Shown in pieces: positions 20,905-35,580 of a stretch of DNA of 64,000 nt. This DNA is from Candidatus Poribacteria bacterium. GTDB lineage: Bacteria; Poribacteria; WGA-4E; WGA-3G. Position numbers and translations under genes: made by a program. Location of the stretch: positions 2,816,001 to 2,880,000 of the forward strand of contig CAXXLX010000001.1 of assembly GCA_963665235.2 (NCBI GenBank), written 5' to 3'. A model generated the notes under the pieces. It searched no databases, was not told where the DNA came from, and saw only the letters and a program-made list of their open reading frames with translations. The stretch's first letter is position 1. Each line of letters opens with the position of its first letter.

Positions 20905-23403
20905 TTAACGGATAATCTTCACATTAATAGCCGGACTATCCTGTTGAAACTGTTGACCGTTGATTATCGCTGAAGCGCGGAACCTAACCTGATACGTTTT
21001 CGGCTCCAGAGAACTCAGTGCCTCCAATGGAAACTTCACATCCATCCCATTAACAGGAATCGTAACAGGAGAAACAGTAATACCCTCCGGTATACCTATA
21101 GGCGTAATGGTAACAACATCCGTGAACCCACCCCGCCGTACCACACTCACCGTAAGCGTAGCCGACTTCGTAATCGGTTCACTTTTTGGCGGAGATTCAA
21201 CCTCTTCCTCAGCAGCTGCAGCCGGTGCCGGATTTGCAATAGCGACCGTCTCACCTTCACCTGTTAGCGTAGCATCATCTTTCGCTGCCGAGGCAGCTTC
21301 CTCCTCAGTTTCTGTTTTAGGGAAAACAATACTAAACCGCAAAGGCTCCACCGTTACAATGAAAGGCGCAGCGACAACATTTAGCGGAATAGCAGGAGCC
21401 GCCTCCGTCACATTTTCGCGGTCGACATTTGCTGTACCGGTAACCGAAATATAGGCAGTACCCGGCGTAGGCACAACAGAGAATTGTTCCCGCCGTTCAA
21501 CAGTACCCGCCCGCAGTGAAATCACCGCACTATTTTGCCCCGCTGGAATTGTCGCCTTTCCTCCCGAAATACGGGGCGGAACTCCTTGTGTCGAAAGCGC
21601 AATAGGACCATTAAAACCGGCGCGTCGATTCGCAATAACGTGGAAGCTCATAGATTTATTGTGAACAACCCTTAAATCAACATCAGCAAATGAGAGCGTA
21701 AAGGCAGGTGCCTCCATCACAGTCAACAGAATCCCCTTCGGTGACCCAGTCGATTCTATACGTTGACCCCCAATAGCTCCAACCCCAACGATAGAGAACG
21801 GGTGCAGCCCAAGCGGCGCGTCCGAAGGTGCAGTTATCGTCAACACTGCTTGATTTTGACCGGGGTATAAAATTGTCGGACTGACTATAAATCCTTTCGG
21901 AAGGTCCGGGGAATAGAAGCGAAGCGCACCATTAAACCCATCCAAACGTGCTACAGAAACCGTCGTCATCAGAGTCCCACCTCGACTAATACGCGGGTTA
22001 TCGGCACCCACATTCACCCGAAAACCCGGGTTAAGTGGACGAATCGTCAGTCGATATGGATAATCTCCGCCACCGGCACCGTTTAGGTCACGCACCGAAA
22101 TAGCGTAATCGCCTGCCTCCGGAAATGCAAAACTGAGCCGGGCATCCGTTCCACTAGCATCATCGTTGATACTTAATATCTGTTCTTCAACGCTGCCCTC
22201 GGCTTCCCCTTTTTTATGAGAATAGAGCGTAAGCAACGGATCGAGTTTAGATTGAAAACCGCGCGCCGCAACATCAAAGACAAAACGCGTCCCTTTCTCT
22301 ACCTTGAAAGAAAACCTATCGATATCGCCAGCCTTCTCTATCTTTCCGTTGACAGTTATCGGCGTTCCGATTTTGTTCTCTTTCGTTAGCGCGTTATTCG
22401 GCTCATTCTCAGCTGTTTCGTTAAATTCACCGATAGCGAACGGATGCGGATTAGTCTCAAGGCCACCGGGCGTACTCACCCGTAGCTCCTGACTGCCTAA
22501 TGGCGTTTCAGCACCAATGTCAAGTTGTATTGCATTGACCGAGCCCAAGTTTGCACCTGTCACATTCACGGTCGTAGCGGTACCCCGCTTTGCACCGAGT
22601 GGAAAAATGCTCTGAAGATACGGCAACTCACCGATACTTAACCGATATAGATAATTCCCGCCACCTTGATAGCGAATGTCCCGCAGCTGAAGCGTATACT
22701 CACCCGCTTGTGCCGTTGTGTAGTTAATAAATGAATCTAACCCGTTCCCGAGGCCACTTTCCACAACCTCTGCACCGTTCGGGTCAAGGAGAACGAAGTA
22801 CGAATCCAAAGCGGACCCAATACGTTGCGCGCTTATGTCACAGATAAGCTGTGCCCCTTTTCTTAATTTAAAACGGAACAGATCAGCATCTTCAATGGAG
22901 GAAACCACACCGCTTACGGTAACAGGCAACTCAAGCATTTGTGCCTCATCCATTGTAGAATTCGGCTCCTGTTCCGCTATCTCAGGCAGATTACCGACAA
23001 TGAAATTTTGCGGATTGGAAACACCATTCGGCGTGATGAGCCGCACCTGATGCGTACCGAGCGGTGCATCCGCCGCAATTTGGAACGATACAACCAGACG
23101 CGGGTTGTTCGGAATGTTACCGGAGATGCCTGAACCGTTAAAACGGACAGTCGCCACCGGCGACTTTTTCGTAATTTCCGCGTTAATCCCCGTTTTATTG
23201 AACCAGACCTCTGCTGTCTCACTGATGTTTTTACCATCCAGTATAATTTCAATAGTTTGTCCGCGTTGTGCACCACGCGGCGATATACCTGTCAACTGCG
23301 GTGCAACCTGTGCATGAACTAAACCGACAACCAAAAACAGAATCAAGGTTATCTGACTCAAAAACCATCTTTGTCTTTTATGTTCTAATAATATATCAGG
23401 CAT
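20905..23403 (-). CDS. Secreted PPC (pre-peptidase C-terminal) repeat protein, planctomycete type
   Basis: Signal peptide, PRGAQRG, EQEPN/ENEPN, D.D.F.F repeats, YRL.IG. Confidence 0.8.
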   Translation of the reverse strand: MPDILLEHKRQRWFLSQITLILFLVVGLVHAQVAPQLTGISPRGAQRGQTIEIILDGKNISETAEVWFNKTGINAEITKKSPVATVRFNGSGISGNIPNNPRLVVSFQIAADAPLGTHQVRLITPNGVSNPQNFIVGNLPEIAEQEPNSTMDEAQMLELPVTVSGVVSSIEDADLFRFKLRKGAQLICDISAQRIGSALDSYFVLLDPNGAEVVESGLGNGLDSFINYTTAQAGEYTLQLRDIRYQGGGNYLYRLSIGELPYLQSIFPLGAKRGTATTVNVTGANLGSVNAIQLDIGAETPLGSQELRVSTPGGLETNPHPFAIGEFNETAENEPNNALTKENKIGTPITVNGKIEKAGDIDRFSFKVEKGTRFVFDVAARGFQSKLDPLLTLYSHKKGEAEGSVEEQILSINDDASGTDARLSFAFPEAGDYAISVRDLNGAGGGDYPYRLTIRPLNPGFRVNVGADNPRISRGGTLMTTVSVARLDGFNGALRFYSPDLPKGFIVSPTILYPGQNQAVLTITAPSDAPLGLHPFSIVGVGAIGGQRIESTGSPKGILLTVMEAPAFTLSFADVDLRVVHNKSMSFHVIANRRAGFNGPIALSTQGVPPRISGGKATIPAGQNSAVISLRAGTVERREQFSVVPTPGTAYISVTGTANVDRENVTEAAPAIPLNVVAAPFIVTVEPLRFSIVFPKTETEEEAASAAKDDATLTGEGETVAIANPAPAAAAEEEVESPPKSEPITKSATLTVSVVRRGGFTDVVTITPIGIPEGITVSPVTIPVNGMDVKFPLEALSSLEPKTYQVRFRASAIINGQQFQQDSPAINVKIIR

Positions 23404-23803: not shown

Positions 23804-25249
23804 CTAGAATATCCCGGTAATCACTTCACCTTTAACCAACTCACGAGGCTGGTCTAAGTGATTCATCACGATAGTGTGCGGGTCAATACCAAGCGTATGA
23901 TAGACCGTCGCCAGAATATCCCGCGGATGCACCGGTTTTTCAAGCGGGGTTGAACCCGTCGCATCAGATTTACCGTAAACCTGACCACCCTTCACACCAG
24001 CACCAGCGATTAGACCGGTATAGCAATACGGCCAGTGGTCCCGACCATCCGGAGCGTTCCCGTTGCCTGACGTGCTGATACCCATACGAGGCGAACGTCC
24101 GAATTCACCGATAGCAAGCACAAGCGTATCCTCTAACATACCGCGCTGAGCTAAATCCTCCAGCAGCGAAGATACCGCACTATCCAACTTCGGACAGTGT
24201 AGATTTTTCAACGGACCGAAATTCGCAGCGTGCGTATCCCATGCCGTCGTATTCGGATTACCGTTCGCAACTGAGGGCCAGTTCACCTGAACAAAACGCG
24301 TACCAGCCTCAACCAATCGGCGAGCGAGCAGCACACTCTGTCCAAATGTGTGCCGACCGTAGCGGTCACGCATCTCATCCGGCTCCTGTGACAAATCAAA
24401 CGCGTTTCGTGCCTTCTGCGACAGGATAAGGTCATACGCCTTCTCATAATGCTCATTCAGCGCATAAGAATCCGCCACCTTGTCAATTTCTGGCATACTT
24501 GCATTAATCGTTTCAAGGAGCGTCTTCCGCCGCTGCAACCGCACCGGGGGCACCTCTGGACGGAGCGTCAAATCGTCAAGTTTCACCTCTTTATTCGGGT
24601 CTTGGAAGAGGAAATACGGGTCATACGCTCTACCGAGGAAACCAGCGTTTCCACCTTTACCGATGATATTACTCTCCTGCATCGGGCGTGGAAGTTGCAC
24701 AGCAGCCAACATCGCTTCGGCTGGCGGCTTGAGCTTCGCAATATGCGCCGCCGCATTCGGATGATCGGCTGGAGACGGCGGATCCAGTTGGCCCGAAGGC
24801 GCAACCTTGTCCGGCGTTTCACCGGTAACCATCTGATACATCGCCGCAGTGTGATTGAAAAGTCCCGCTGGCGTATAACTTACGGAACGGATAAGACACG
24901 CCTTATCCATCTGTTTCGCCAAAAGCGGCATCGTTTCTGATAACTGAATACCCGGAACATTCGTCGGAATCGGGTTAAATTCTCCACGGATATTAGAGGG
25001 TGCATCCGGCTTCGGATCCCAGATGTCAATATGGCTCGGGCCGCCTTGTAAGAAAAGCAGAATAACTGAATTCGCTTTGCCCCAACCACTTACAGCCGGT
25101 GCCACATCAACTGCCGTACTCGCCTTCGCTTGAAGTGACAAGACTTGGGGTAGGCTAATGCCCAGCATCGCCGCGCCCCCCACGCGGAGAAATTCTCGAC
25201 GCGAGAACCCGTCACATAATCTTCCAGGGGCTTGTGGTAATGATAACAT
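23804..25249 (-). CDS. DUF1501 family protein (Tat signal)
   Basis: SRREFLRVG, GGPSHIDIWDPKP, ARRLVEAG, WDTH, GEFGRSP, GRDHWP. Confidence 0.93.
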   Translation of the reverse strand: MLSLPQAPGRLCDGFSRREFLRVGGAAMLGISLPQVLSLQAKASTAVDVAPAVSGWGKANSVILLFLQGGPSHIDIWDPKPDAPSNIRGEFNPIPTNVPGIQLSETMPLLAKQMDKACLIRSVSYTPAGLFNHTAAMYQMVTGETPDKVAPSGQLDPPSPADHPNAAAHIAKLKPPAEAMLAAVQLPRPMQESNIIGKGGNAGFLGRAYDPYFLFQDPNKEVKLDDLTLRPEVPPVRLQRRKTLLETINASMPEIDKVADSYALNEHYEKAYDLILSQKARNAFDLSQEPDEMRDRYGRHTFGQSVLLARRLVEAGTRFVQVNWPSVANGNPNTTAWDTHAANFGPLKNLHCPKLDSAVSSLLEDLAQRGMLEDTLVLAIGEFGRSPRMGISTSGNGNAPDGRDHWPYCYTGLIAGAGVKGGQVYGKSDATGSTPLEKPVHPRDILATVYHTLGIDPHTIVMNHLDQPRELVKGEVITGIF

Positions 25250-25422: not shown

Positions 25423-27921
25423 CTAACGATTGAATAAAAACGCTGGACTATTAATCAACGCCCACAGCAAATCTTGTGCGCCTTCCTCTTTAGATTCTGC
25501 TGCAGCGATATGCTCTGCCGCCTTTGCAGCTTCAGCTTCCGATGGCAACCGAGCAAGCGTCGCAAGATATAATTCTTCAACGATGGCACCAGCATCCGCA
25601 TCCACTTTTGTAAGTTTTGCAATTCGTCCCGCAGGGTCTATGAGCGCATCCGCGACTGTCGGCCCGTTAAGCAGGTTCATTGCATGTGCAAGACTCACCT
25701 CACCGGTCCGCTCACATTCACAAGAAGACTCACGTTCTGGCCTCCCGAAAAGTTTCAAGAAACCGTCATCTTTTACCTGACTATCGGGCAACTGAACCGC
25801 GCGGAAGTTTTTCGGCACCGCTTGGAATTTCGGGCGGCTCCCCGTCGCTATGCCGATGGCATCTAGCAACTGCTCCGCTGTCAAACGCCGCGCAGTCCCG
25901 TGCGAGAAGTTAATTTCATCGTCTTGATTCCACTTATTCGTCTTAATACTCTGCTGATAAGTTCTGGAACGGGCAATCGTTTTCATGATATGTTTCATAT
26001 TAAACCCGTTCTCAACAAAATCCTTCGTCAGCGCATCAAGCAGTTCCGGATTGCTCGGCGGATTGCTCGTTCGAATATCGTCTACTGGCTCGATGATACC
26101 GCGCCCCATGAAATAACTCCAGAGACGGTTCACACCCGCCCGCGCGAACATCGGATTCTCCGGGGCAGTAAGCCACGTAGCAAACGCTTGCCGCCGGTCG
26201 TTTGTACCTGAATCCACCTCGCCGAACGGAACGGAAGGTTCAACTACCGCTAATGTCCGTGGATGTTTCACAGGACTGTCCGTATAACTTGCATAAACGA
26301 TTTCATCCCCAGGCAATTGCCCACGTTTTACCTTAACATCCGCGAAAAACGCCCCCAATTCATAATATTGATTCTGAGTCCATTTTTCAAACGGATGGTC
26401 ATGACACTTATTGCAGGAGAAGCGAACACCGAGAAAAAGCTGTGTCGTATTTTCTACAACCGCCGTATATTCGCGCGACACCCGAAAATAACTCGCCGCC
26501 GGATTCGTGTACGCACTTCCCGAAGCTGTCAACAGTTCCCTGACAAACCGGTCATAAGGCCGGTTCTCCTTAATCGCATCGTGAATCCACTCCTGGAACA
26601 GCCAAACCCCGCGCTCACCGAGAAACTTACGATTAGACTGAAGCAGGTCCGCCCACTTATGCGTCCAATGGTCAACAAACTCCGGTGTTTCTATCAACAC
26701 ATCAATTAACTTTTCCCGTTTCGCCTTCGAGTCGGTGTCATCCTTCAGGAAACTGCGCACCTGCTCAGGTGTCGGCGGAAGCCCGGTCAAGTCTAGATAA
26801 ATGCGACGCACAAATTCTTCATCGGTACACAACGCTGACGGTAGAATTTTCAACCGCTGAAGCTTATTGTGAACGTGCGTATCAATATAGTTATATTCAG
26901 GGGTTTCAACCCATTCGTAACCGCTCCGGTCCCCCATAACGATAATGCCGTTTGTGCTATATGTCCCTTCGTAACGGGTGAGAATAGCCGTTTCGCCACG
27001 ACGTGCAGCAGTGACCACCCCCGCATCCGTTACAGTTGCAACATCGTTAACACTACTTGTGAACTTCGCCTCACGGGTAACATCCCGCGTCGTGCCATCC
27101 GCATAGTGTGCGATGACGACCAGCTGTTGCATCATCCCGGGCATCGCCAATTCAGCGGAGTCCGGTAGCACCTCTATCCGTTTCACACGGTCGATGCGGC
27201 CAACGTCAGAAATCGCGCCTTCCGCTATCCATTGCCGAAGGAGCTTATAATAGCGGGCCCCTGGCACTATCACCTGCCCGCCTTTGTGCGGCACCTCTGA
27301 TGTCGGTTTGAGCAACATCAGGCTCTGCTCAGGGAACGCCCTATTGAAACGTCGTCCAGAAATGTCCTCGATTAACAGCTCATAATCGAACTCTGGGTCA
27401 TAACCGCGTAAGGAAAGCTTGAAACCATTTTTGCCCTTCGCTCCACCGTGACATGTGCCGTTATTACACCCCGCATGACTCAGGGTAGGCATCACATCCC
27501 GAACAAAACTTACAGGCGGCGCGTCTATACTTTCGACCGTTACCGGGAGCTCAGCACTAAGCCCTTTCGCTTTAACAACAACTTTTGTTGAACCGACCGC
27601 TATCGGAACAATATACCCCGATTCGTTAATTTCTACACTATTAGATGCGGACGTTAGCGTTGCGCGATGCGTTACATCGACCCATGCTCCATCCGCTGTT
27701 TGTCCAGAAACGAGGATACGGCGTTCATCGCGCGCATGCGACAACGTCAACGCCTCTGGATGAACCTTCAACGCTTTTAGGGCAATGCTTTCAAGCCCAT
27801 CTTGCGCCGCTGATACCTCTACACTCGCCGCGGGATTCTCCATCTCACTTGAAACCTCAAGCAGAAAACACATGGAAAATACGATAAGGAGCGTAGCAAA
27901 CAAATGAACACTGCGTTCCAT
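25423..27921 (-). CDS. DUF1549/DUF1553 (PSCyt2/PSD1) protein with Ig-like domains and heme-c-like motifs
   Basis: GCNNGTCHG, RRIYLDLTG, CNKCHDHP, NRLWSYFMGRG, PSNPELLDAL, FGRPERESSCECER, WALINSPAFLFNR; start moved to MERSV (GGAGG RBS). Confidence 0.92.
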   Translation of the reverse strand: MERSVHLFATLLIVFSMCFLLEVSSEMENPAASVEVSAAQDGLESIALKALKVHPEALTLSHARDERRILVSGQTADGAWVDVTHRATLTSASNSVEINESGYIVPIAVGSTKVVVKAKGLSAELPVTVESIDAPPVSFVRDVMPTLSHAGCNNGTCHGGAKGKNGFKLSLRGYDPEFDYELLIEDISGRRFNRAFPEQSLMLLKPTSEVPHKGGQVIVPGARYYKLLRQWIAEGAISDVGRIDRVKRIEVLPDSAELAMPGMMQQLVVIAHYADGTTRDVTREAKFTSSVNDVATVTDAGVVTAARRGETAILTRYEGTYSTNGIIVMGDRSGYEWVETPEYNYIDTHVHNKLQRLKILPSALCTDEEFVRRIYLDLTGLPPTPEQVRSFLKDDTDSKAKREKLIDVLIETPEFVDHWTHKWADLLQSNRKFLGERGVWLFQEWIHDAIKENRPYDRFVRELLTASGSAYTNPAASYFRVSREYTAVVENTTQLFLGVRFSCNKCHDHPFEKWTQNQYYELGAFFADVKVKRGQLPGDEIVYASYTDSPVKHPRTLAVVEPSVPFGEVDSGTNDRRQAFATWLTAPENPMFARAGVNRLWSYFMGRGIIEPVDDIRTSNPPSNPELLDALTKDFVENGFNMKHIMKTIARSRTYQQSIKTNKWNQDDEINFSHGTARRLTAEQLLDAIGIATGSRPKFQAVPKNFRAVQLPDSQVKDDGFLKLFGRPERESSCECERTGEVSLAHAMNLLNGPTVADALIDPAGRIAKLTKVDADAGAIVEELYLATLARLPSEAEAAKAAEHIAAAESKEEGAQDLLWALINSPAFLFNR

Positions 27922-27992
27922 ATTAACCTCCGGATGTGATATGAAACTTACTTTTTTAAAGGAGCGATGAAAACCGCCCTGATATTTTGGGT

Positions 27993-28817
27993 TTACCACC
28001 GATTTTTCAGATGTCCCCACACCACCGGCAACTTGCCGCCGGGGGATACATCTGCATATTCCGATTCATTCGCCAACCAATTGATAACATTTTCTGTGAG
28101 TTGTTCTAATTGGTCAATGTCTTTGTTATTCTTATGATAGTTCGGCAGCCGCCAATTCATATTGAACACCTTACCGCTACCAGCTTTCCAATAACCGAAC
28201 GCGGCAATTTGGTCTTTCCAATCGTTTGCAGGCGGCCCCCAAGCGTTCGCAAGCGTCCTAAAATTCTTCCAAAGCTTGTTATAATAATCGCCACTCTTTG
28301 GGAATCCTGTGGAATTGACCTGAATCCTATCGCCGACTGTCGGTGCCTTGCCCTCAATATTCTTCAATCCCTCAACTAGACCAAGGTCTAGTGTCTCTTG
28401 CAGTACCGTGATACCGACGTTTTGGCCGTCGTCTAAAACGGCATTGTATTGGCGAGCGACAGCGTTTTCCAATCCCATCGGTGTAGCATAACGGATTGCC
28501 CATGCTGTCAGAAGCACTGCACCCCCACTTTCCGCGTAGTCCAGGAACGCATCAATTTCCGCATCCGACAAAGCCCCGGGGTCGCTATCCCCTTCATGCC
28601 ACCACACAACGCCATACTGCTTAAACGTCGCACTCTTCAGATCATTTTTGCCCAATACCGTCGTTTCAAACGTCTCTTTTGCGAAATCCAGTGCAGGGGT
28701 TGTAAACGGACCATCCTCCCCGAGATAGAGAAAACCCACATTCAACTTTGCTGCATTTCCTATATTTAAACCACATATCAACATTAAAGTCAAGAAAAAT
28801 AGAACTTTTCGATACAT
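27993..28817 (-). CDS. Secreted class I glutamine amidotransferase-like-fold protein with Poribacteria-type C-terminal motif
   Basis: Signal peptide, VVWWH, GGAVLL; ends ADVSPGGKLPVVWGHLKNRW. Confidence 0.55.
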   Translation of the reverse strand: MYRKVLFFLTLMLICGLNIGNAAKLNVGFLYLGEDGPFTTPALDFAKETFETTVLGKNDLKSATFKQYGVVWWHEGDSDPGALSDAEIDAFLDYAESGGAVLLTAWAIRYATPMGLENAVARQYNAVLDDGQNVGITVLQETLDLGLVEGLKNIEGKAPTVGDRIQVNSTGFPKSGDYYNKLWKNFRTLANAWGPPANDWKDQIAAFGYWKAGSGKVFNMNWRLPNYHKNNKDIDQLEQLTENVINWLANESEYADVSPGGKLPVVWGHLKNRW

Positions 28818-28858: not shown

Positions 28859-29632
28859 TCACGACGTATGTTCGCGAAGCCGCCCCTCACCTAATTTCAC
28901 AAACTCCGGCTCCATCTCAAACGCAATGAAATCTCGCCGATGCCGCTTACACACTATTGGGCAGGTACCCACCCCAGCAAACGGATCCAAAACCAAATCG
29001 CCCGGCAACGAACTCGCTAACACCAACCTCTCAATTAACCTCTCAGGTTTCTGAATCGTGTTAAGGGCCTCTCTACACACCAACTCTTGTGACCTATACG
29101 TCAGTTGTTTTATATCGCCCCAAACATCACCAGGATTCTTACCTTTCGGGTTATACTTTGTTTTTCCGAACTTACCGTTTTTGACAGATGGAACGTTTTC
29201 ACAACGTTGTCTCTGTTCCAACTCAACAAGTTGTCCTACTCTTATAGCGTCAAGGTTATAGCACCTTGGACGCTTGCCCTTAATAAAATAGCAGATAACA
29301 TCGTAGTTATTCGTATAATTGATTCTGCCTTGGGCAAGGCGACTCGGTTGATACCACACAATCTTTGAACGGAGGGTTAAGAACTCCCGATAGTCTATAA
29401 AGTCGATGCAGTCCGGTTTCCCGAACAGATAGAGCGCACCGCCCTCCTTCAATTTTGGTGTAAAACTTCTAATAAGCCCGAAATTAAATTCCTGAATTGA
29501 GGAAATCTTATCCCACGCCGCCGTTGTTACGCCATACGGACCATCACACACAATCAGATCGATTGAGGCATCTTCCACCGATTTCAGTAGCGTAAATGCG
29601 TCTCCGCAATGGATAGTGTTACGTTCAAGCAT
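28859..29632 (-). CDS. Orphan beta-class N6A/N4C DNA methyltransferase
   Basis: Motif IV variant DGPY, TIQKPERL, motif I VLDPFAGVGT; no restriction gene adjacent. Confidence 0.9.
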   Translation of the reverse strand: MLERNTIHCGDAFTLLKSVEDASIDLIVCDGPYGVTTAAWDKISSIQEFNFGLIRSFTPKLKEGGALYLFGKPDCIDFIDYREFLTLRSKIVWYQPSRLAQGRINYTNNYDVICYFIKGKRPRCYNLDAIRVGQLVELEQRQRCENVPSVKNGKFGKTKYNPKGKNPGDVWGDIKQLTYRSQELVCREALNTIQKPERLIERLVLASSLPGDLVLDPFAGVGTCPIVCKRHRRDFIAFEMEPEFVKLGEGRLREHTS

Positions 29633-29733: not shown

Positions 29734-31188
29734 TTACATCGGACCAACCCGCTCCGGTCCCATATCCATCGCAAACATAGACGCATCAAAGCTTCTTTTC
29801 AGCAGCTCCAATTTGAGACCCTGCATCTCTTGTGTATGCCAAAGGTTATCAAACTCATCGGGGTCATTCACTAAATCGTAGAGCTCACCCTCTTCGTGAC
29901 CGTGATAAACAACCAATTTGTGATGCTTATCGCGATACATTGTGCCGAAAGTATGGTCTCGTAAATTAACGGCATCATAGTACTCACATCGCACGAAATC
30001 ACGATGATGATTCGCATCCGCTTCACCCCGCAGAATAGGAAGTAATGAACGTCCATGCATCTGCTCAGGAACAGCCAGCCCGGCTAATTCTAAAAGTGTC
30101 GGTGTTTTGTCAACTAGCTCAACAAGTGCATCGCTTTTCAAACCGCCTACAAATTGCCCCGGCCACGAGAAAATCAGCGGCACTCTCACCAATCCCTCGT
30201 AAAACCGGCACCCCTTTTGGATAAGACCGTGGTCGCCAAGTGTTTCGCCATGGTCACTTGTAAAAATAACAACCGTGTTTTCACGTTGCCCGGTCTCCTC
30301 AAGCGTTTCCAGAATCCTGCCCAACTGCTCGTCAATCAGTTGAACCATTGCATAATATGCCGCTTTGAGTGTCTTTGCATCTCTTTCCCCAACAATTTCG
30401 GAGGCAGGTTTACCGCGTGGTGGCTGCGGTAAAATCGGACTCCGGATGTCTAATTCATTGGGATGCTGTCCTTTCGACTGAAAGTCAACCTGGCGTAACC
30501 GATGCTGCTGTTCCAGGTCGCTTTCTCTGAAGAGCGGTTCCGGCATATCCTTCGGCTCGAATCTTTCCCGATGTGTCTGTGGCGGGTTGAACGGTGGATG
30601 CGGGTCATAGATATTGACACTTGCAAGCCACGGGCCATCCCGTTCCTCACGAATAAACGCAATTGTTTTTTCAGCACACCAGGTCGTTTGATGTAGCTCC
30701 GCTGGCACCCCTTCCGGATTCCGATTGAGTTCACCGAGGATATACCCTTTTGAGCGGACCCAATCCGCGTAGTCGTGCCCCACCTTCCAATCATCGCGCG
30801 GCGCATGACTATACTGCCAATAGCGGTAACCGTCAGCTGCGCGCGGTTCAACTCGGCGATAAGCACTTGCGAGGTGAAGTTTACCAATTAACCCGCAATC
30901 GTACCCGACATCTGCCAGCATTCGTGTCACAAGCGGATACGTTTCCGGAAAGAAATCGTTTCCGTTCCGCATCGCGTGTGTCGCGCTGGGGTACATCCCC
31001 GTCAGAAAGCTGGCTCGACTCGGTGTGCAAATAGGACTTTGGCAATAGGCATGCGTAAATGCCACACCCTCCGCAACCAAACTATCAATATTCGGTGTTG
31101 ACACGTACGGATTCCCTAGCGCGCCTATCGTATCATAACGCTGCTGGTCGGTACAGACCCAGAGGATATTCGGAGCTTCAACAGCCAT
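29734..31188 (-). CDS. Formylglycine-dependent sulfatase (cytoplasmic)
   Basis: PNIL..TDQ, CTPSRAS, GKLH, DPHPP, TSDHG. Confidence 0.95.
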   Translation of the reverse strand: MAVEAPNILWVCTDQQRYDTIGALGNPYVSTPNIDSLVAEGVAFTHAYCQSPICTPSRASFLTGMYPSATHAMRNGNDFFPETYPLVTRMLADVGYDCGLIGKLHLASAYRRVEPRAADGYRYWQYSHAPRDDWKVGHDYADWVRSKGYILGELNRNPEGVPAELHQTTWCAEKTIAFIREERDGPWLASVNIYDPHPPFNPPQTHRERFEPKDMPEPLFRESDLEQQHRLRQVDFQSKGQHPNELDIRSPILPQPPRGKPASEIVGERDAKTLKAAYYAMVQLIDEQLGRILETLEETGQRENTVVIFTSDHGETLGDHGLIQKGCRFYEGLVRVPLIFSWPGQFVGGLKSDALVELVDKTPTLLELAGLAVPEQMHGRSLLPILRGEADANHHRDFVRCEYYDAVNLRDHTFGTMYRDKHHKLVVYHGHEEGELYDLVNDPDEFDNLWHTQEMQGLKLELLKRSFDASMFAMDMGPERVGPM

Positions 31189-31194
31189 CGGTCC

Positions 31195-32820
31195 TTACTC
31201 TTCAATTGCTGCACTAAATCCTGCTGCTTTAATAACGTTTGCTAGTTCATCCGTACTCACAGCATTTTTTCGTACCTTAATCACCGCCAGAGCCGGGAGA
31301 GAAACCGCCGCGCTGATAACGTTTTGGTGTTGTGAAAGTGCATCCTGCACTTTAGTTACACAGCCACCTCACGTCATACCTGTCACTGTGAAAGTGACCT
31401 CCACACTTGCAGTTGCCTCAATAGGTACCGACATAAACGCGTTCAACAGCTTTCCGGATTCGGTATCGAACACCCGAATTTTTCCATCAAATCCGCCTGC
31501 GGCAAGTTGTTTACCGTTCGGGTGAAAGGCAACAGCAAAAACGCCTACTGTATCGCCTTGCATCGTTGCCAACCGTTTCCCATCTGCCACGTTATAGATG
31601 CGAACTTCACCGGCAGAACTTCCCACTGCAAACCGACTGCCATCCGCTGAAAACGTCACAACCTCAATCGAACCGGACTGTGCTTCGTAAGCACGGATAA
31701 GATTAAAATCTGTGTTGCCAACGTCTCTGCGCGTTTGACGGAAAATTCTGTAGAGCCGCGGAATCCGATCTTCTCCTGCACTCAAAACCTGGTCCGCAGT
31801 CGGATGCCGAGCAATCGTGTTCAACCCCCCATATCCTTTATTACTGGAGTTTACATCGTCCACAAAAGACCCGGTTTCGACCTCAACCAATTTCAGTGCT
31901 GAATCGCGACCACAACTTACAAAATGCGTCCCATCCAAGGAGAAAAGCGTCCCGAAAACCCAATCGCTGTGATTATCAAACTTAACCAATTCCTTCTCAT
32001 CAGCAACCGATAAGACGCGCACCGTTTTATCTGAACATCCGAACGCTACACGTTTCGCGTCCGGTGAAAAGGACAACCCGTATATCGTATCATAACTAGA
32101 ACGCATCGCCTTGACAAGTTTATTTGATGCCGTATCCCATAACTGTACCTCGCCAAACTGTGCAGGTGAACCGCCTGCCACGCCCAATGTTTTCCCATCT
32201 GTCGTATACACCAGCGATTCTATTCGATGTGCTTTGCCCACCAAACGTGATTTAAGTTCAAGGTTTGCCGCATCATATAACAGCACCTCGCGGAACCCTG
32301 AAACTGCTAGCACGTCACCATCCGGAGAATATGCTAACGCAGAAATCACGGGCGGCACCGTGTAACTTGGATAATCGCCTGCTCCCGTATTTTCAACTTC
32401 CGCGGGCGTATCATCCTTTGCTCCCTCAAGAATCCAACGCCGAAACAGCGCAACCTCTTCCGCAGAAAGCGGGTCTTGGTTCTGCGGCATAGCCGGGGCT
32501 TCACCAGAGATAAGTTCAATAATTAAACTTTCATCCGGTTTCCCCGGTACCACCGTATCGCCTGCCATCCCCCCCTTCTTCAGTTCACTGTACGATGTAA
32601 CAATCAGATCTCCACTCGGCTCCCCGGGGTGATGACACCCTTGACAGCTCCGTTTAAGAATTGGGGCAATCTCTTTATGATAACTCACCGCTGAAGCCGC
32701 CTGATGTGAGTCGGCATATAACAACGTACTTGCTGCTATCAAACACAACAAACACATGCCCACCTTTAAGAAGTGAGTTTCAGAGACCTGTCCGTTCCGT
32801 AAAAACTTCGATATTTTCAT
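31195..32820 (-). CDS. Planctomycete-type cytochrome c + WD40 + C-terminal selenocysteine HMA domain (UGA at 31369-31371 predicted as Sec; ~541 aa)
   Basis: CQGCH...AMP...WILEGA, WD40 repeats. The frame stays open past TGA: VTFTVTGMT-U-GGCVTKVQDALSQHQNVISAAVSLPALAVIKVRKNAVSTDELANVIKAAGFSAAIEE*, ending at a TAA that overlaps the sulfatase RBS. Confidence 0.85.
31326..31368 (-). promoter_or_regulatory. Bacterial SECIS-like stem-loop immediately 3' of the in-frame UGA
   Basis: UGA-GGUG-GC-UGUG-UAACU-AAAGUGCA-GGA-UGCACUUU-CACA-A-CACC: 8-bp perfect upper stem, G-first loop 23 nt after the UGA. Confidence 0.8.
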
Positions 32821-33110: not shown

Positions 33111-35580
33111 CTAGTGCCCATGTGGGTGAGCTGAGTCATGAGGGTGTTCATGTGTGTGGCCTGAGGGCGCAGTGGATTGTGCTGGCTCTGTTGCAAGATA
33201 TTTCGAATCCGCCTTAATGTATGATGGGTAATTAATTTTCCAGACCTTGACATAGCCTGTGGCCTCTTCTCCTGTTGGGTAGGTAGGAATGAAAACATCA
33301 TTATACTCACCTCTTAAAAAAAGTTTGACAGCGAGACTGTTCCAACCGAGCGAGGGTACATAATAGGCATATTGGAGTATCGCGTGCGCGTCAAAAAATA
33401 AAATTATTCCACCGTTTCCGATCTCTACGGCTTGTAGAGAGTTTTTGTCAGTGTTTATGGAAATCTCTTTGGAAATGTTGTGATGTGTTCTAAGATGGAC
33501 AATGACAATGAGTTTTTGTTGTGCTTCAGCCGTGCTACTTGCATGATTACCTTGTTCTTGAATTGGCATTTTTGGAACAAGGTTAACAAATACAATAGGT
33601 GTTTCATCCCGGCGCGGTCGTAGTTGGTAAGGAGCACCAATGGGTGTTTCTATTTGCTTGAGTGGATAAAAAGTAAAATGTCTGTCATCGTTTGTATCAC
33701 TGCCAATGAGTGAATAAGCGTGGGCACGTCCTATGACCTCACGTTCGGTTAACATAAGATGTGTAGCGTTGTGAGTTTTAAGAAAAGTTAGTGCTTCATA
33801 CTTATCTTCCGCACAGAATACGTGTCGGTAAAAGAGATGGATCCAATGCAGGATGAAGTGGTCGGAGTCAATGATAGTATTGACACTGCTGAGGACGTTA
33901 AGTTGTGTTCCATGGGGCCAATTAGCGGCAATAACCGCATTTTGCGGGAGGGTGTTTTTTATCCATTTAAACGTTTGGGCGAGGCTCCCCTCTCCGGGGA
34001 TAGGTCTCTTCATGCGCGCAGCAGCATGAACAGCACGGTTTGCATGCCCACCCAGGGGGTTCCAAAAGAGAATAGGTATTAACAAGACAATTGCAAAGAC
34101 AGCAGCAAAACCTTTTTCCCTAATACCATGTGGATAAAGAATCTTTAAGTCCTTTAGTTTTTGTATAAGGTGAATAGGTAATAACCAGAGGAACCATGCT
34201 GTGCCAAAGGCAAGAGGGATGCCGATAAAGAAATCGTAGCGTTTCCCGCTTCGGGCAAATGCTACCCACAAGAGAAACCAGACAAGCATAGCAAGCAACA
34301 CATTTTCATTTTCCTCGGTTTCTTTTCGGCGGGATGCAATGGCGAGACAAACAACAGCAAGTCCTAACGAAATAAAAAAGAGCATATCACATGCGCTTTC
34401 CCCTATTAATTTGCTTACAGGCCAACGAAAAAAGGTTGTTGCGGTAAAGAGCATGAGCGAGCTTGCAAGCGGGAAGCCTTTCCATTTCCAGAGATAGAGG
34501 CAGGAAACTATCAAACCGATGCTGCCTAAGATAAAGATAGCACCGTATCGTCCGGGCCAATACCTGAAATGTGGGTCGGCTAATTCACTAACATTCTGCA
34601 AAAGGAGATTTCCGCGAAACATGGGGGCAGTGGTCTCAAAAGTCCCTGCATAGAAGGAAATATAACCGGCACCTGCTACGATGGCAAGGAAGGTTAACCC
34701 CCATGCAAGTTTTCGGGCATGGGGACGAAGGTATTCAACATACTTAAGAAGCAGATGCCGGGTACCGAGTAGCACGAAAACTGTTAGGGATGGCAACAGC
34801 ATGAGCGCGGAGACATGCGTAGAGAAGCCAAATCCACGTTGGTAGATAGGTGATATGAGATAGAGTGCTGGGACAAACGTGAACGTCCATATTAGATACT
34901 CCTTGAAATGGTGTTCTGCATCGGTGGTGCAGAATTTCCAAAGTTCAAGCGCGAGTATGATTAAAACAAAAAGACCAAAACCTTCCCAAGAGAGTCCCCC
35001 CAAGAAAACAGTGAATCCGGCAAGGACAGTAACAAAAAATCTGCGTTTTCCCGGTTGTATCTGTTCTTTACAAAATATAAAAAGTAACAGCAAGGAGACC
35101 CAAGAACCAGCATAAAGCATCTCTGTCACCAAAACCAGCAGCACTGCGACTGATGCTTCCAGGGAGGGTTGCCAGAAGCAAGCCTACGATAGATGCCAGA
35201 AAGAGCCCGTAAGTCCGAGCGAGGAAAATAAACAATATGCCAACACCCAATGTGAAACAGACAGTAGAAAAATAGAATTGGATGTGATAGAGAGACAACC
35301 ATGGAAACACTTTGTGGATATAAGCGATGGTGTAGGCATAGAACGAGAGAAATTTCTGGTTGTCTCTACCATAAGGCAGCCAACGATGTTCATCCAATGC
35401 AGGAAGATATCCGTGTTTCGCAATGATACTTGCCTGCCAATGGAAGGTATAAGCATCGTTTTCAGTAAATTGCCCTTCGGGAATGCGCTCTACCCCCTGA
35501 ATACGTATCAAGAAGGTGAGACACATAATGACCAAAAGGAGTATACTGGGAAACAACGTATTTGATAGAAAATGTCTCAT
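33111..35580 (-). pseudogene. STT3/PglB/AglB-like oligosaccharyltransferase, split by a 1-nt frameshift at ~35070-35085
   Basis: N-part with ENDAY and SAAGFGDRD; C-part multi-TM with ANWPHG (WWDxG-like) and DSDH; the halves join if one T is removed from TTTTTATATTTTGTAAAG; His-rich tail. Confidence 0.72.

Follow-up and report, generated by a model that had tools for sequence, protein, structure and literature searches.

A predicted selenocysteine-containing HMA domain at the C terminus of a cytochrome c-WD40 protein in Candidatus Poribacteria

Relation to known selenocysteine-bearing metal-binding domains

The heavy-metal-associated (HMA) domains of CopZ and Atx1, of the Cu-ATPases ATP7B and CopA, and of MerP and NmerA share the same fold and the same G-M-T-C-x-x-C signature, and all of them use Cys. 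Here we describe a gene in a 64,000-nucleotide stretch of a Candidatus Poribacteria bacterium genome (assembly GCA_963665235.2, contig CAXXLX010000001.1, positions 2,816,001 to 2,880,000 of the forward strand; referred to below as the window), in which the first ligand of this signature is predicted to be selenocysteine (Sec) and the domain belongs to a 541-residue protein. On comparative evidence, this gene very probably encodes a genuine bacterial selenoprotein, i.e., a probably exported PSCyt1-WD40-HMA product in which an in-frame UGA is decoded as Sec to give a metal-binding tail with the pair U484-x-x-C487.

The protein represents a new selenoprotein family and a new architecture; the principle is not new, as there are other curated families in which HMA-type domains carry Sec. 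The initial annotation had stated that such domains had been predicted before, which is right, and the precedent is better than it implied. NF041115 (UxxU_metal_bind) is likewise a small HMA-type domain with Sec replacing Cys of the CxxC site, and it aligns to the C-terminal domain over profile positions 5 to 71 of 74, with a score of 37.6 bits (49.8 bits for a small paralog described below) that falls short of the cut-off of 95. NF041115 has a UxxU site, whereas the poribacterial domain has UxxC and forms the tail of a cytochrome c-WD40 protein. In the available parts of two selenoprotein reviews (PMC9312934, PMC13188914), the NF041115 family is given as a “putative mercuric reductase” with UxxU, and a UxxC cation-transporting P-type ATPase (E1-E2) selenoprotein, ABB15669.1, is tabulated. 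This ATPase also carries UxxC in a heavy-metal handling protein, presumably within its N-terminal HMA domain. That domain faces the cytoplasm as part of a membrane pump, whereas the HMA domain described here is probably periplasmic and is joined to a heme c domain and a propeller instead of an ATPase domain. NF045683 (MerT_CopZ_Se, “MerT/CopZ fusion-like heavy metal transport selenoprotein”) provides a precedent for a Sec-bearing CopZ/HMA-like module within a fusion, but it matches only the small paralog and a two-HMA ortholog, at 34 to 35 bits versus a cut-off of 375, and the MerT part is missing here.

The remainder of the protein resembles the PSCyt1-WD40 proteins of Verrucomicrobiota, Chthonomonadales, and Planctomycetes-like genomes, which have the same heme motif and the same propeller and are accompanied by PSCyt2/PSD1 and DUF1501 neighbors of the same kind as in the window, but without HMA and without Sec. 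The initial annotation knew of no description of the combined architecture. In the open-access literature searched, no selenoprotein with a WD40 or cytochrome c-HMA composition was described, and poribacterial selenoproteins did not appear beyond a mention of [NiFeSe] hydrogenase. The architecture is also absent from the selenoprotein tables of PMC9312934 and PMC13188914 as far as these are available; the available text of both reviews does not mention WD40, and that of PMC13188914 is also free of propeller, HMA, PF00403, and Planctomyc-. The Planctomycete selenoprotein candidates in Table S9 of PMC4807772 do not include a cytochrome c-WD40-HMA protein.

Decoding of the in-frame UGA codon

On the minus strand, an open reading frame (ORF; 32820..31372) begins with ATG at 32820 and runs for 483 codons until it meets a TGA (31371..31369) in the context ...TFTVTGMT-TGA-GGC, i.e., inside G-M-T-[TGA]-G-G-C, exactly where the first Cys of the GMxCxxC metal-binding motif is expected. 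Past this TGA, the same frame stays open for 57 extra codons up to a TAA (31197..31195), which overlaps an AAGGA (31196..31192); the ATG of the next gene, a sulfatase, follows 6 nt downstream at 31188. The initial annotation had reported the interrupted 483-aa ORF, the placement of the TGA in the motif, and the overlap of the TAA with the ribosome-binding site of the next gene, and its coordinates and description proved to be correct. The features that bear on decoding are as follows.

31195..32820, minus strand: full coding sequence of the predicted selenoprotein (541 residues plus TAA; Sec is residue 484)
31369..31371, minus strand: UGA codon predicted to be read as Sec, residue 484 and first ligand of G-M-T-U-x-x-C (comparative evidence)
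31362..31360, minus strand: C487, the second motif residue (translation)
31335..31353, minus strand: putative SECIS-type hairpin within the HMA coding sequence (folding and alignment)

Neither an error of sequencing or assembly nor a nonsense mutation that arose recently in this one genome can account for the TGA, and both ideas can be regarded as refuted. Contigs from four public runs, three of them from one study (possibly the source of the window) and the fourth from a second study, cover positions 31100 to 31420 or more with zero differing letters and no variant of the TGA, and the same TGA is found in 109 other species-level genomes of the family. In all four runs, the summed contig depth is several-fold higher over the hairpin region, at positions 31283 to 31343, and the loose contig ends at these positions are related sequences that likewise carry ATGACGTGAGG. 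This segment is evidently nearly identical among co-occurring strains or paralogs.

The genome that contains the window (5.3 Mb in 4 contigs, 92.6% complete) encodes the full set of Sec genes that the initial annotation had proposed to look for, all four above curated cut-offs: selA (601 bits versus a cut-off of 268), selB (357 versus 242), selD (359 versus 125), and tRNA-Sec (78.1 versus 47; anticodon tca according to ARAGORN), which is located directly after selB. The selD gene (G000:C1:3841015-3841941) has an in-frame TGA of its own and is itself a selenoprotein gene (KCAGU-ASK), with a hairpin (6-bp stem, GGG loop) 11 nt past its UGA that resembles the hairpin of the fusion gene. Across the order, 151 of 159 genomes contain selA; the Sec trait seems to extend throughout the Poribacteria and receives hardly any mention in the open-access literature searched.

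Among the 34 ORFs of at least 250 aa in the window, stops are distributed as 19 TAA, 8 TAG, and 7 TGA, so TGA ends 6 of the 33 long ORFs other than the one considered here; it also terminates several orthologs. TGA is a normal stop in these genes, and the code is thus not reassigned. This bears on the alternative that the UGA is read as a standard amino acid (Trp, Cys, Gly, or Arg) through near-cognate decoding or a reassigned code. Any kind of read-through would keep the downstream frame under selection, and to that extent the conservation described below is shared ground; yet the complete Sec machinery, the alignment of the codon with a metal-ligand Cys, and a conserved SECIS-type hairpin at the expected distance make this alternative most improbable.

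Orthologs were surveyed in 159 genomes spanning four families of the order. A full-length ortholog with 72 to 79% identity and one in-frame TGA was present in each of the 24 same-family genomes sampled first, and across the order the ortholog was found in 109 of 111 same-family genomes in addition to the window's own, with one in-frame TGA in all 110. These same-family orthologs have 71 to 79% identity, starting at residues 5 to 41 and ending at residues 537 to 540; two contain an additional TAA, which is near the N terminus in the one inspected. The named relatives are metagenome-assembled genomes of Candidatus Poribacteria. Genome G010 has, in addition to the full copy, a partial one ~0.4 kb downstream (C53:7073-7648; residues 347 to 538, 71% identity), in which the TGA and the hairpin are present too.

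Outside the family, the pattern changes. In the second (sister) family, 11 of 29 genomes have an ortholog, of which 1 carries a TGA, 9 are stop free to residue 538 or beyond, and 1 extends only to residue 469. The third family has an ortholog in all 7 genomes, 3 of which encode a U-bearing HMA domain after a longer linker, and at least one of the third-family orthologs examined ends without an HMA domain. The fourth family has none in 11 genomes. Translated alignments show GMTUxxC in 29 rows (26 same family and 3 third family) and GMTCGAC in one Cys form, and UxxC is present in all 66 of the Sec-form sequences aligned. The initial annotation had suggested searching orthologs for TGA or TGY at this codon, and both are found: TGA in 82, TGC in 3, and TGT in 2 of 87 partly redundant locus hits. 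In the stop-free orthologs of the sister family, the site is TGC or TGT (i.e., Cys) in all five sites examined. Alternation of Sec and Cys at a motif ligand is the usual hallmark of a genuine selenoprotein. The Cys forms do not go back to a loss of the Sec trait, given that all 20 genomes of the genus with the Cys-type fusion protein have selA. By parsimony across the families, Sec would be the earlier state.

The codons after the UGA behave as protein-coding sequence. In 59 distinct same-family sequences, invariant residues downstream of the UGA use multiple synonymous codons (6 at L24, 6 at R33, and 4 at P25), with the major codon accounting for only 39 to 58% at V+4, L24, P25, A28, R33, K34, L42, and G50, and from this we infer purifying selection on the protein frame after the UGA. 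These data bear directly on the possibility that, in vivo, the UGA acts predominantly or exclusively as a stop, so that the cell would make the 483-residue cytochrome-propeller protein and leave the HMA-like tail as a remnant with little or no translation. Natural homologs lend this idea some plausibility, since those of Verrucomicrobiota, Chthonomonadales, and others (44 to 51% identity, from residues ~11 to 47 to residues 462 to 513) stop just past the last blade at approximately residue 470, with no HMA and no Sec, and HMA-less homologs also occur in one poribacterial genus. Public annotation is equally compatible with it: as the initial annotation had anticipated, standard gene calling truncates the protein, and among the clusters listed in the public protein database, all 102 ortholog clusters (68 to 94% identity, 326 to 494 aa) end at the Sec codon, cover just residues 380 to 483 of the query region, and are called “hypothetical protein” or “WD40 repeat protein” where a name is given. 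However, a remnant would be expected to decay, and yet the 57 codons keep an intact HMA domain and change synonymously; all 110 orthologs retain the TGA, and sister lineages have Cys at the site; and termination would cut the protein off inside the metal-binding loop, past only the first beta-strand of the HMA domain in the AlphaFold model. We consider this possibility very unlikely.

The initial annotation had drawn attention to a downstream hairpin as part of the expected Sec signature, and alignment now defines it as GUGCA-GGN-UGCAC, invariant in 66 Sec forms and broken in Cys forms. This core starts 18 nt past the UGA and is extended by 1 to 3 A-U pairs; in the window, the stem is formed by AAAGUGCA and UGCACUUU (8 bp, loop GGA, with the shared core GUGCA/UGCAC). 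Folding of positions 31385 to 31290 is moderately better than that of shuffled sequences (z of -2.1; 5 of 200 shuffles as good). Codon usage over the hairpin departs from that in the rest of the domain: codons +7, +8, and +10 (GTG, CAG, and GCA) do not vary in any of the 59 sequences, 52 of 53 share AAA at codon +6, and 45 of 45 share GAT at codon +9, in contrast to major codon shares of just 39 to 66% at other invariant residues. Columns 22 to 28 and 31 to 35 are invariant in the alignment of 66 Sec-form segments, which includes another family, the two-HMA ortholog, and two small paralogs (~40 to 50% protein identity), and the helix is 97% paired, with A21-U35 changed to G-U in 3 sequences. 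In the Cys forms (four distinct sequences), changes at core positions destroy the stem. A genome search with the pattern TGA-N15-20-GTGCAGGNTGCAC returned exactly 3 matches, all in Sec-HMA genes, and the reversed control returned 0. These comparisons strongly support that the hairpin is under RNA-level selection and would recruit SelB as a predicted Sec insertion sequence (SECIS). Sec decoding at UGA 31371..31369 is likewise strongly supported as a prediction, and what could have spoken against it did not appear, in that Sec machinery is present in the genome, the contigs show neither TGC nor TGT, and the orthologs keep both the TGA and the hairpin.

Architecture of the product and role of the HMA tail

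The initial annotation had proposed a secreted fusion of heme c, a beta-propeller, and a Sec-HMA domain. Pfam matches, the AlphaFold model, and the invariance of C59, C62, H63, and M111 bear out the fusion, with secretion read from the N terminus. The domains are arranged as follows.

32713..32820, minus strand: signal-peptide-like N terminus, residues 1 to 36 (AlphaFold helix 14-34 and ortholog N termini)
32485..32646, minus strand: PSCyt1 (Planctomycete cytochrome c), residues 59 to 112 (PF07635)
31423..32346, minus strand: seven-bladed WD40 beta-propeller, approximately residues 159 to 466 (Pfam, model, and Foldseek)
31204..31407, minus strand: C-terminal HMA domain, residues 472 to 539 (PF00403 and model)

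A hydrophobic helix at residues 14 to 34, followed by a conserved Ala-Asp-x-His, suggests export to the periplasm; attachment of c-type heme requires export. The PSCyt1 domain (PF07635, 37.6 bits versus a cut-off of 22) contains the heme-attachment motif C59-x-x-C62-H63 at 32646..32632 on the minus strand, and C59, C62, H63, M111, and P112 are invariant in a 44-sequence alignment. M111 is the likely axial Met, and the domain would fit a His/Met-ligated c-type heme. The propeller matches PF00400 (97.5 bits versus a cut-off of 27) and many other WD40 and beta-propeller Pfam families, and it is modeled with pLDDT values mostly between 84 and 98 (mean pLDDT for the whole model, 85.9; pTM, 0.76). 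Foldseek searches against the Protein Data Bank with the whole model returned generic 7-bladed WD40 propellers alone (top matches including 7bie_A, E value of 1.6e-26, TM score to target of 0.91) and nothing on function or domain packing.

The extension past the TGA does complete an HMA domain, as the initial annotation had claimed. With the TGA translated as Sec/Cys, the last 72 residues match PF00403 at 40.5 bits versus a cut-off of 24.8 (E value of 3.6e-10; 30.6 bits in the whole-genome scan) over profile positions 1 to 61 of 62. The AlphaFold model gives the HMA fold beta-alpha-beta-beta-alpha-beta, with strands at residues 472-480, 501-507, 511-517, and 536-539, helices at residues 485-496 and 523-532, and pLDDT values of ~89 to 94. 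The loop that leads into helix 485-496 carries the pair U484-x-x-C487, and U484 sits where this first helix begins. The closest solved sequences are the Cu(I)-binding domains of ATP7B and CopA, followed by NmerA and CopZ.

The CopZ copper chaperone models (NF033794, NF033795, and NF047957) score 41.5, 37.0, and 35.5 bits, below their cut-offs of 85 to 95, and MerP of the mer operon (TIGR02052) scores 24.3 bits versus a cut-off of 92.55. A MerP-like role was rejected, as the genome contains no MerT and no MerA above the cut-off.

Even if Sec is accepted, the motif could serve another purpose: U-x-x-C may be a redox centre that cycles between selenol/thiol and selenenylsulfide and exchanges electrons with heme c, the HMA fold being only a scaffold. 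Most prokaryotic UxxC and CxxU selenoproteins are tabulated as redox proteins in the available parts of three sources (PMC9312934, PMC13188914, and PMC1976440). The model places the motif at a helix N terminus, and a c-type cytochrome in the same polypeptide offers a possible electron partner. The CxxC sites of thioredoxin folds also lie at a helix N terminus. The domain itself, however, matches HMA and no thioredoxin-like family; Cu-ATPase, CopZ, and MerP domains have G-M-T-x-x-x-C as their metal-binding signature; the curated Sec-bearing families of HMA type are named for metal binding or heavy-metal transport; and small paralogs share the motif without a redox partner domain. We therefore regard a purely redox role as distinctly unlikely and favor metal binding by the Sec-bearing tail.

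Several observations weigh against a Sec-decoded, metal-binding tail or limit what can be said of it. At the RNA level, covariation is no better than in shuffled alignments (the observed paired percentage is reached by 61 of 500 shuffles, and 4 of 7 pairs are constant); as the stem hardly varies, this test is uninformative, and support for the RNA element rests on the synonymous-site invariance, which could, in principle, stem from some other nucleotide-level constraint. A permissive scan of positions 31250 to 31420 recovered no Rfam SECIS family, just chance miRNA-like matches (E values of 0.5 to 4.2); Rfam bacterial SECIS models are lineage specific, and this null result carries little weight for that reason. 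No run on record as RNA contains the stretch, and translation and selenium incorporation are read from sequence. Sec is not obligatory for function, because the Cys-form genus keeps selA (20 of 20 genomes). At the protein level, the HMA tail stays below the curated cut-offs of the NCBIfam CopZ, MerP, and UxxU models, and metal specificity is not fixed by the HMA sequence. In the genome, at 92.6% completeness, MerT has 0 matches and the best MerA match (381.8 bits) is below the cut-off of 454.45.

Under the reading that we prefer, SelB with Sec-tRNA(Sec) would be recruited by the hairpin within the coding sequence, and UGA 31371..31369 would be decoded as Sec to yield a product of 541 residues comprising a signal peptide, a mono-heme PSCyt1 cytochrome, a seven-bladed WD40 propeller, and the C-terminal HMA domain. 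The two-Cys site of the HMA domain would thus become the selenolate-thiolate pair U484-x-x-C487, which most likely binds a soft metal ion via Se and S. Our best guess for this ion, judged from the related domains, is Cu(I), with Hg, Cd, Ag, and Zn as alternatives. The module may hold the metal ion beside the heme and the propeller or hand it over there. Where Sec insertion fails, a 483-residue form without HMA would result, resembling the natural HMA-less homologs, and the supply of selenium might in this way, as the initial annotation proposed, switch the HMA domain on or off; the occurrence of such homologs supports this idea only indirectly.

Gene neighborhood, related genes, and implications

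The genes downstream of the fusion gene include the PSCyt2/PSD1 and DUF1501 partners already mentioned.

29734..31188, minus strand: sulfatase, the next gene downstream (PF00884, E value of 5e-49)
28859-29632, minus strand: DNA methylase, present in 8 of 10 same-family loci
27993-28817, minus strand: 274-aa ORF of unassigned family, present in 10 of 10 same-family loci
28020..25423, minus strand: PSCyt2/PSD1 (DUF1549/DUF1553) protein (Pfam)
25249..23804, minus strand: DUF1501 protein (Pfam)
23403..20905, minus strand: PPC-domain protein (Pfam)

The order PSCyt2/PSD1, DUF1501, and PPC-domain protein is found downstream of the ortholog in all 12 loci examined. Among the families examined, the sulfatase, the DNA methylase, and the 274-aa ORF intervene in the window's family alone. 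The sulfatase occupies the same place in 9 of 10 same-family loci and is missing from it in the 2 loci of other families, where the conserved partners are directly adjacent to the ortholog, one of these being a Cys form (G032) and the other a Sec form (G030). The fusion protein probably works with the PSCyt2/PSD1, DUF1501, and PPC-domain proteins. On the other side of the gene, two minus-strand ORFs overlap by 77 nt: one of 170 aa (35068-35580) that matches the STT3 N terminus, and one of 677 aa (33111-35144) that has no Pfam match and whose start lies in the overlap. A frameshift or a miscalled start in a single oligosaccharyl-transferase-like gene at positions 33111 to 35580 may explain this arrangement.

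The fusion gene is not the only carrier of the Sec-HMA unit. Three of the four HMA matches in the genome have an in-frame TGA, and outside the window there are two tandem small lipoprotein-like HMA genes (G000:C1:2948827-2949201 and ~2949260-2949694) with the motifs GMTUGGC and GMTUGSC and the same GUGCAGGAUGCAC hairpin; no recognizable metal-resistance genes surround these two genes. Relatives of the small paralogs occur in 58 of 61 genomes sampled over all four families, and among the matches listed, 104 of 118 have one TGA, a count made irrespective of its position. One ortholog of the fusion protein (genome G047, L120 501-2270) has two tandem Sec-HMA domains and two Sec residues, and some genomes contain tandem arrays of four or five HMA units, part with and part without TGA. 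Tandem HMA loci were located at G003:C1:39354-40409, G001:C1:1192431-1193645, and G009:C44:316708-317595.

As the SECIS would lie inside the coding sequence of the domain itself, the unit could be duplicated or fused while still being decoded, and the Sec-HMA unit thus appears to be a self-contained cassette. We further speculate, tentatively and with considerable doubt, that a portable recoding cassette has been copied onto cytochrome c-WD40 proteins, small lipoproteins, and tandem arrays of up to 5 units, that the selenolate-bound metal is redox coupled to the heme, and that the fusion protein acts as a selenium-dependent periplasmic metal oxidoreductase or metallochaperone feeding PSCyt2/PSD1-DUF1501 systems. 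If this were true, it would provide a first functional handle on very large PVC-type gene families and a link between selenium and metals in sponge symbiosis.

Overall, these results point to a widely conserved and misannotated selenoprotein family in more than 100 species-level genomes of a sponge-symbiont lineage, and GMT-TGA-N18-GTGCAGGNTGCAC can serve as a simple search key for correcting the annotations. Judging from the domain, Sec would act here as a metal ligand in an exported protein, which is a less common use of Sec. The PSCyt1-WD40, PSCyt2-PSD1, and DUF1501 families are, to our knowledge, among the most expanded and least understood in PVC-type genomes, and a metal-handling module tied to these sets gives a testable hint about their function. 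The order-wide Sec trait, together with the Sec-HMA module, may also have a bearing on the selenium and trace-metal economy of sponge holobionts.

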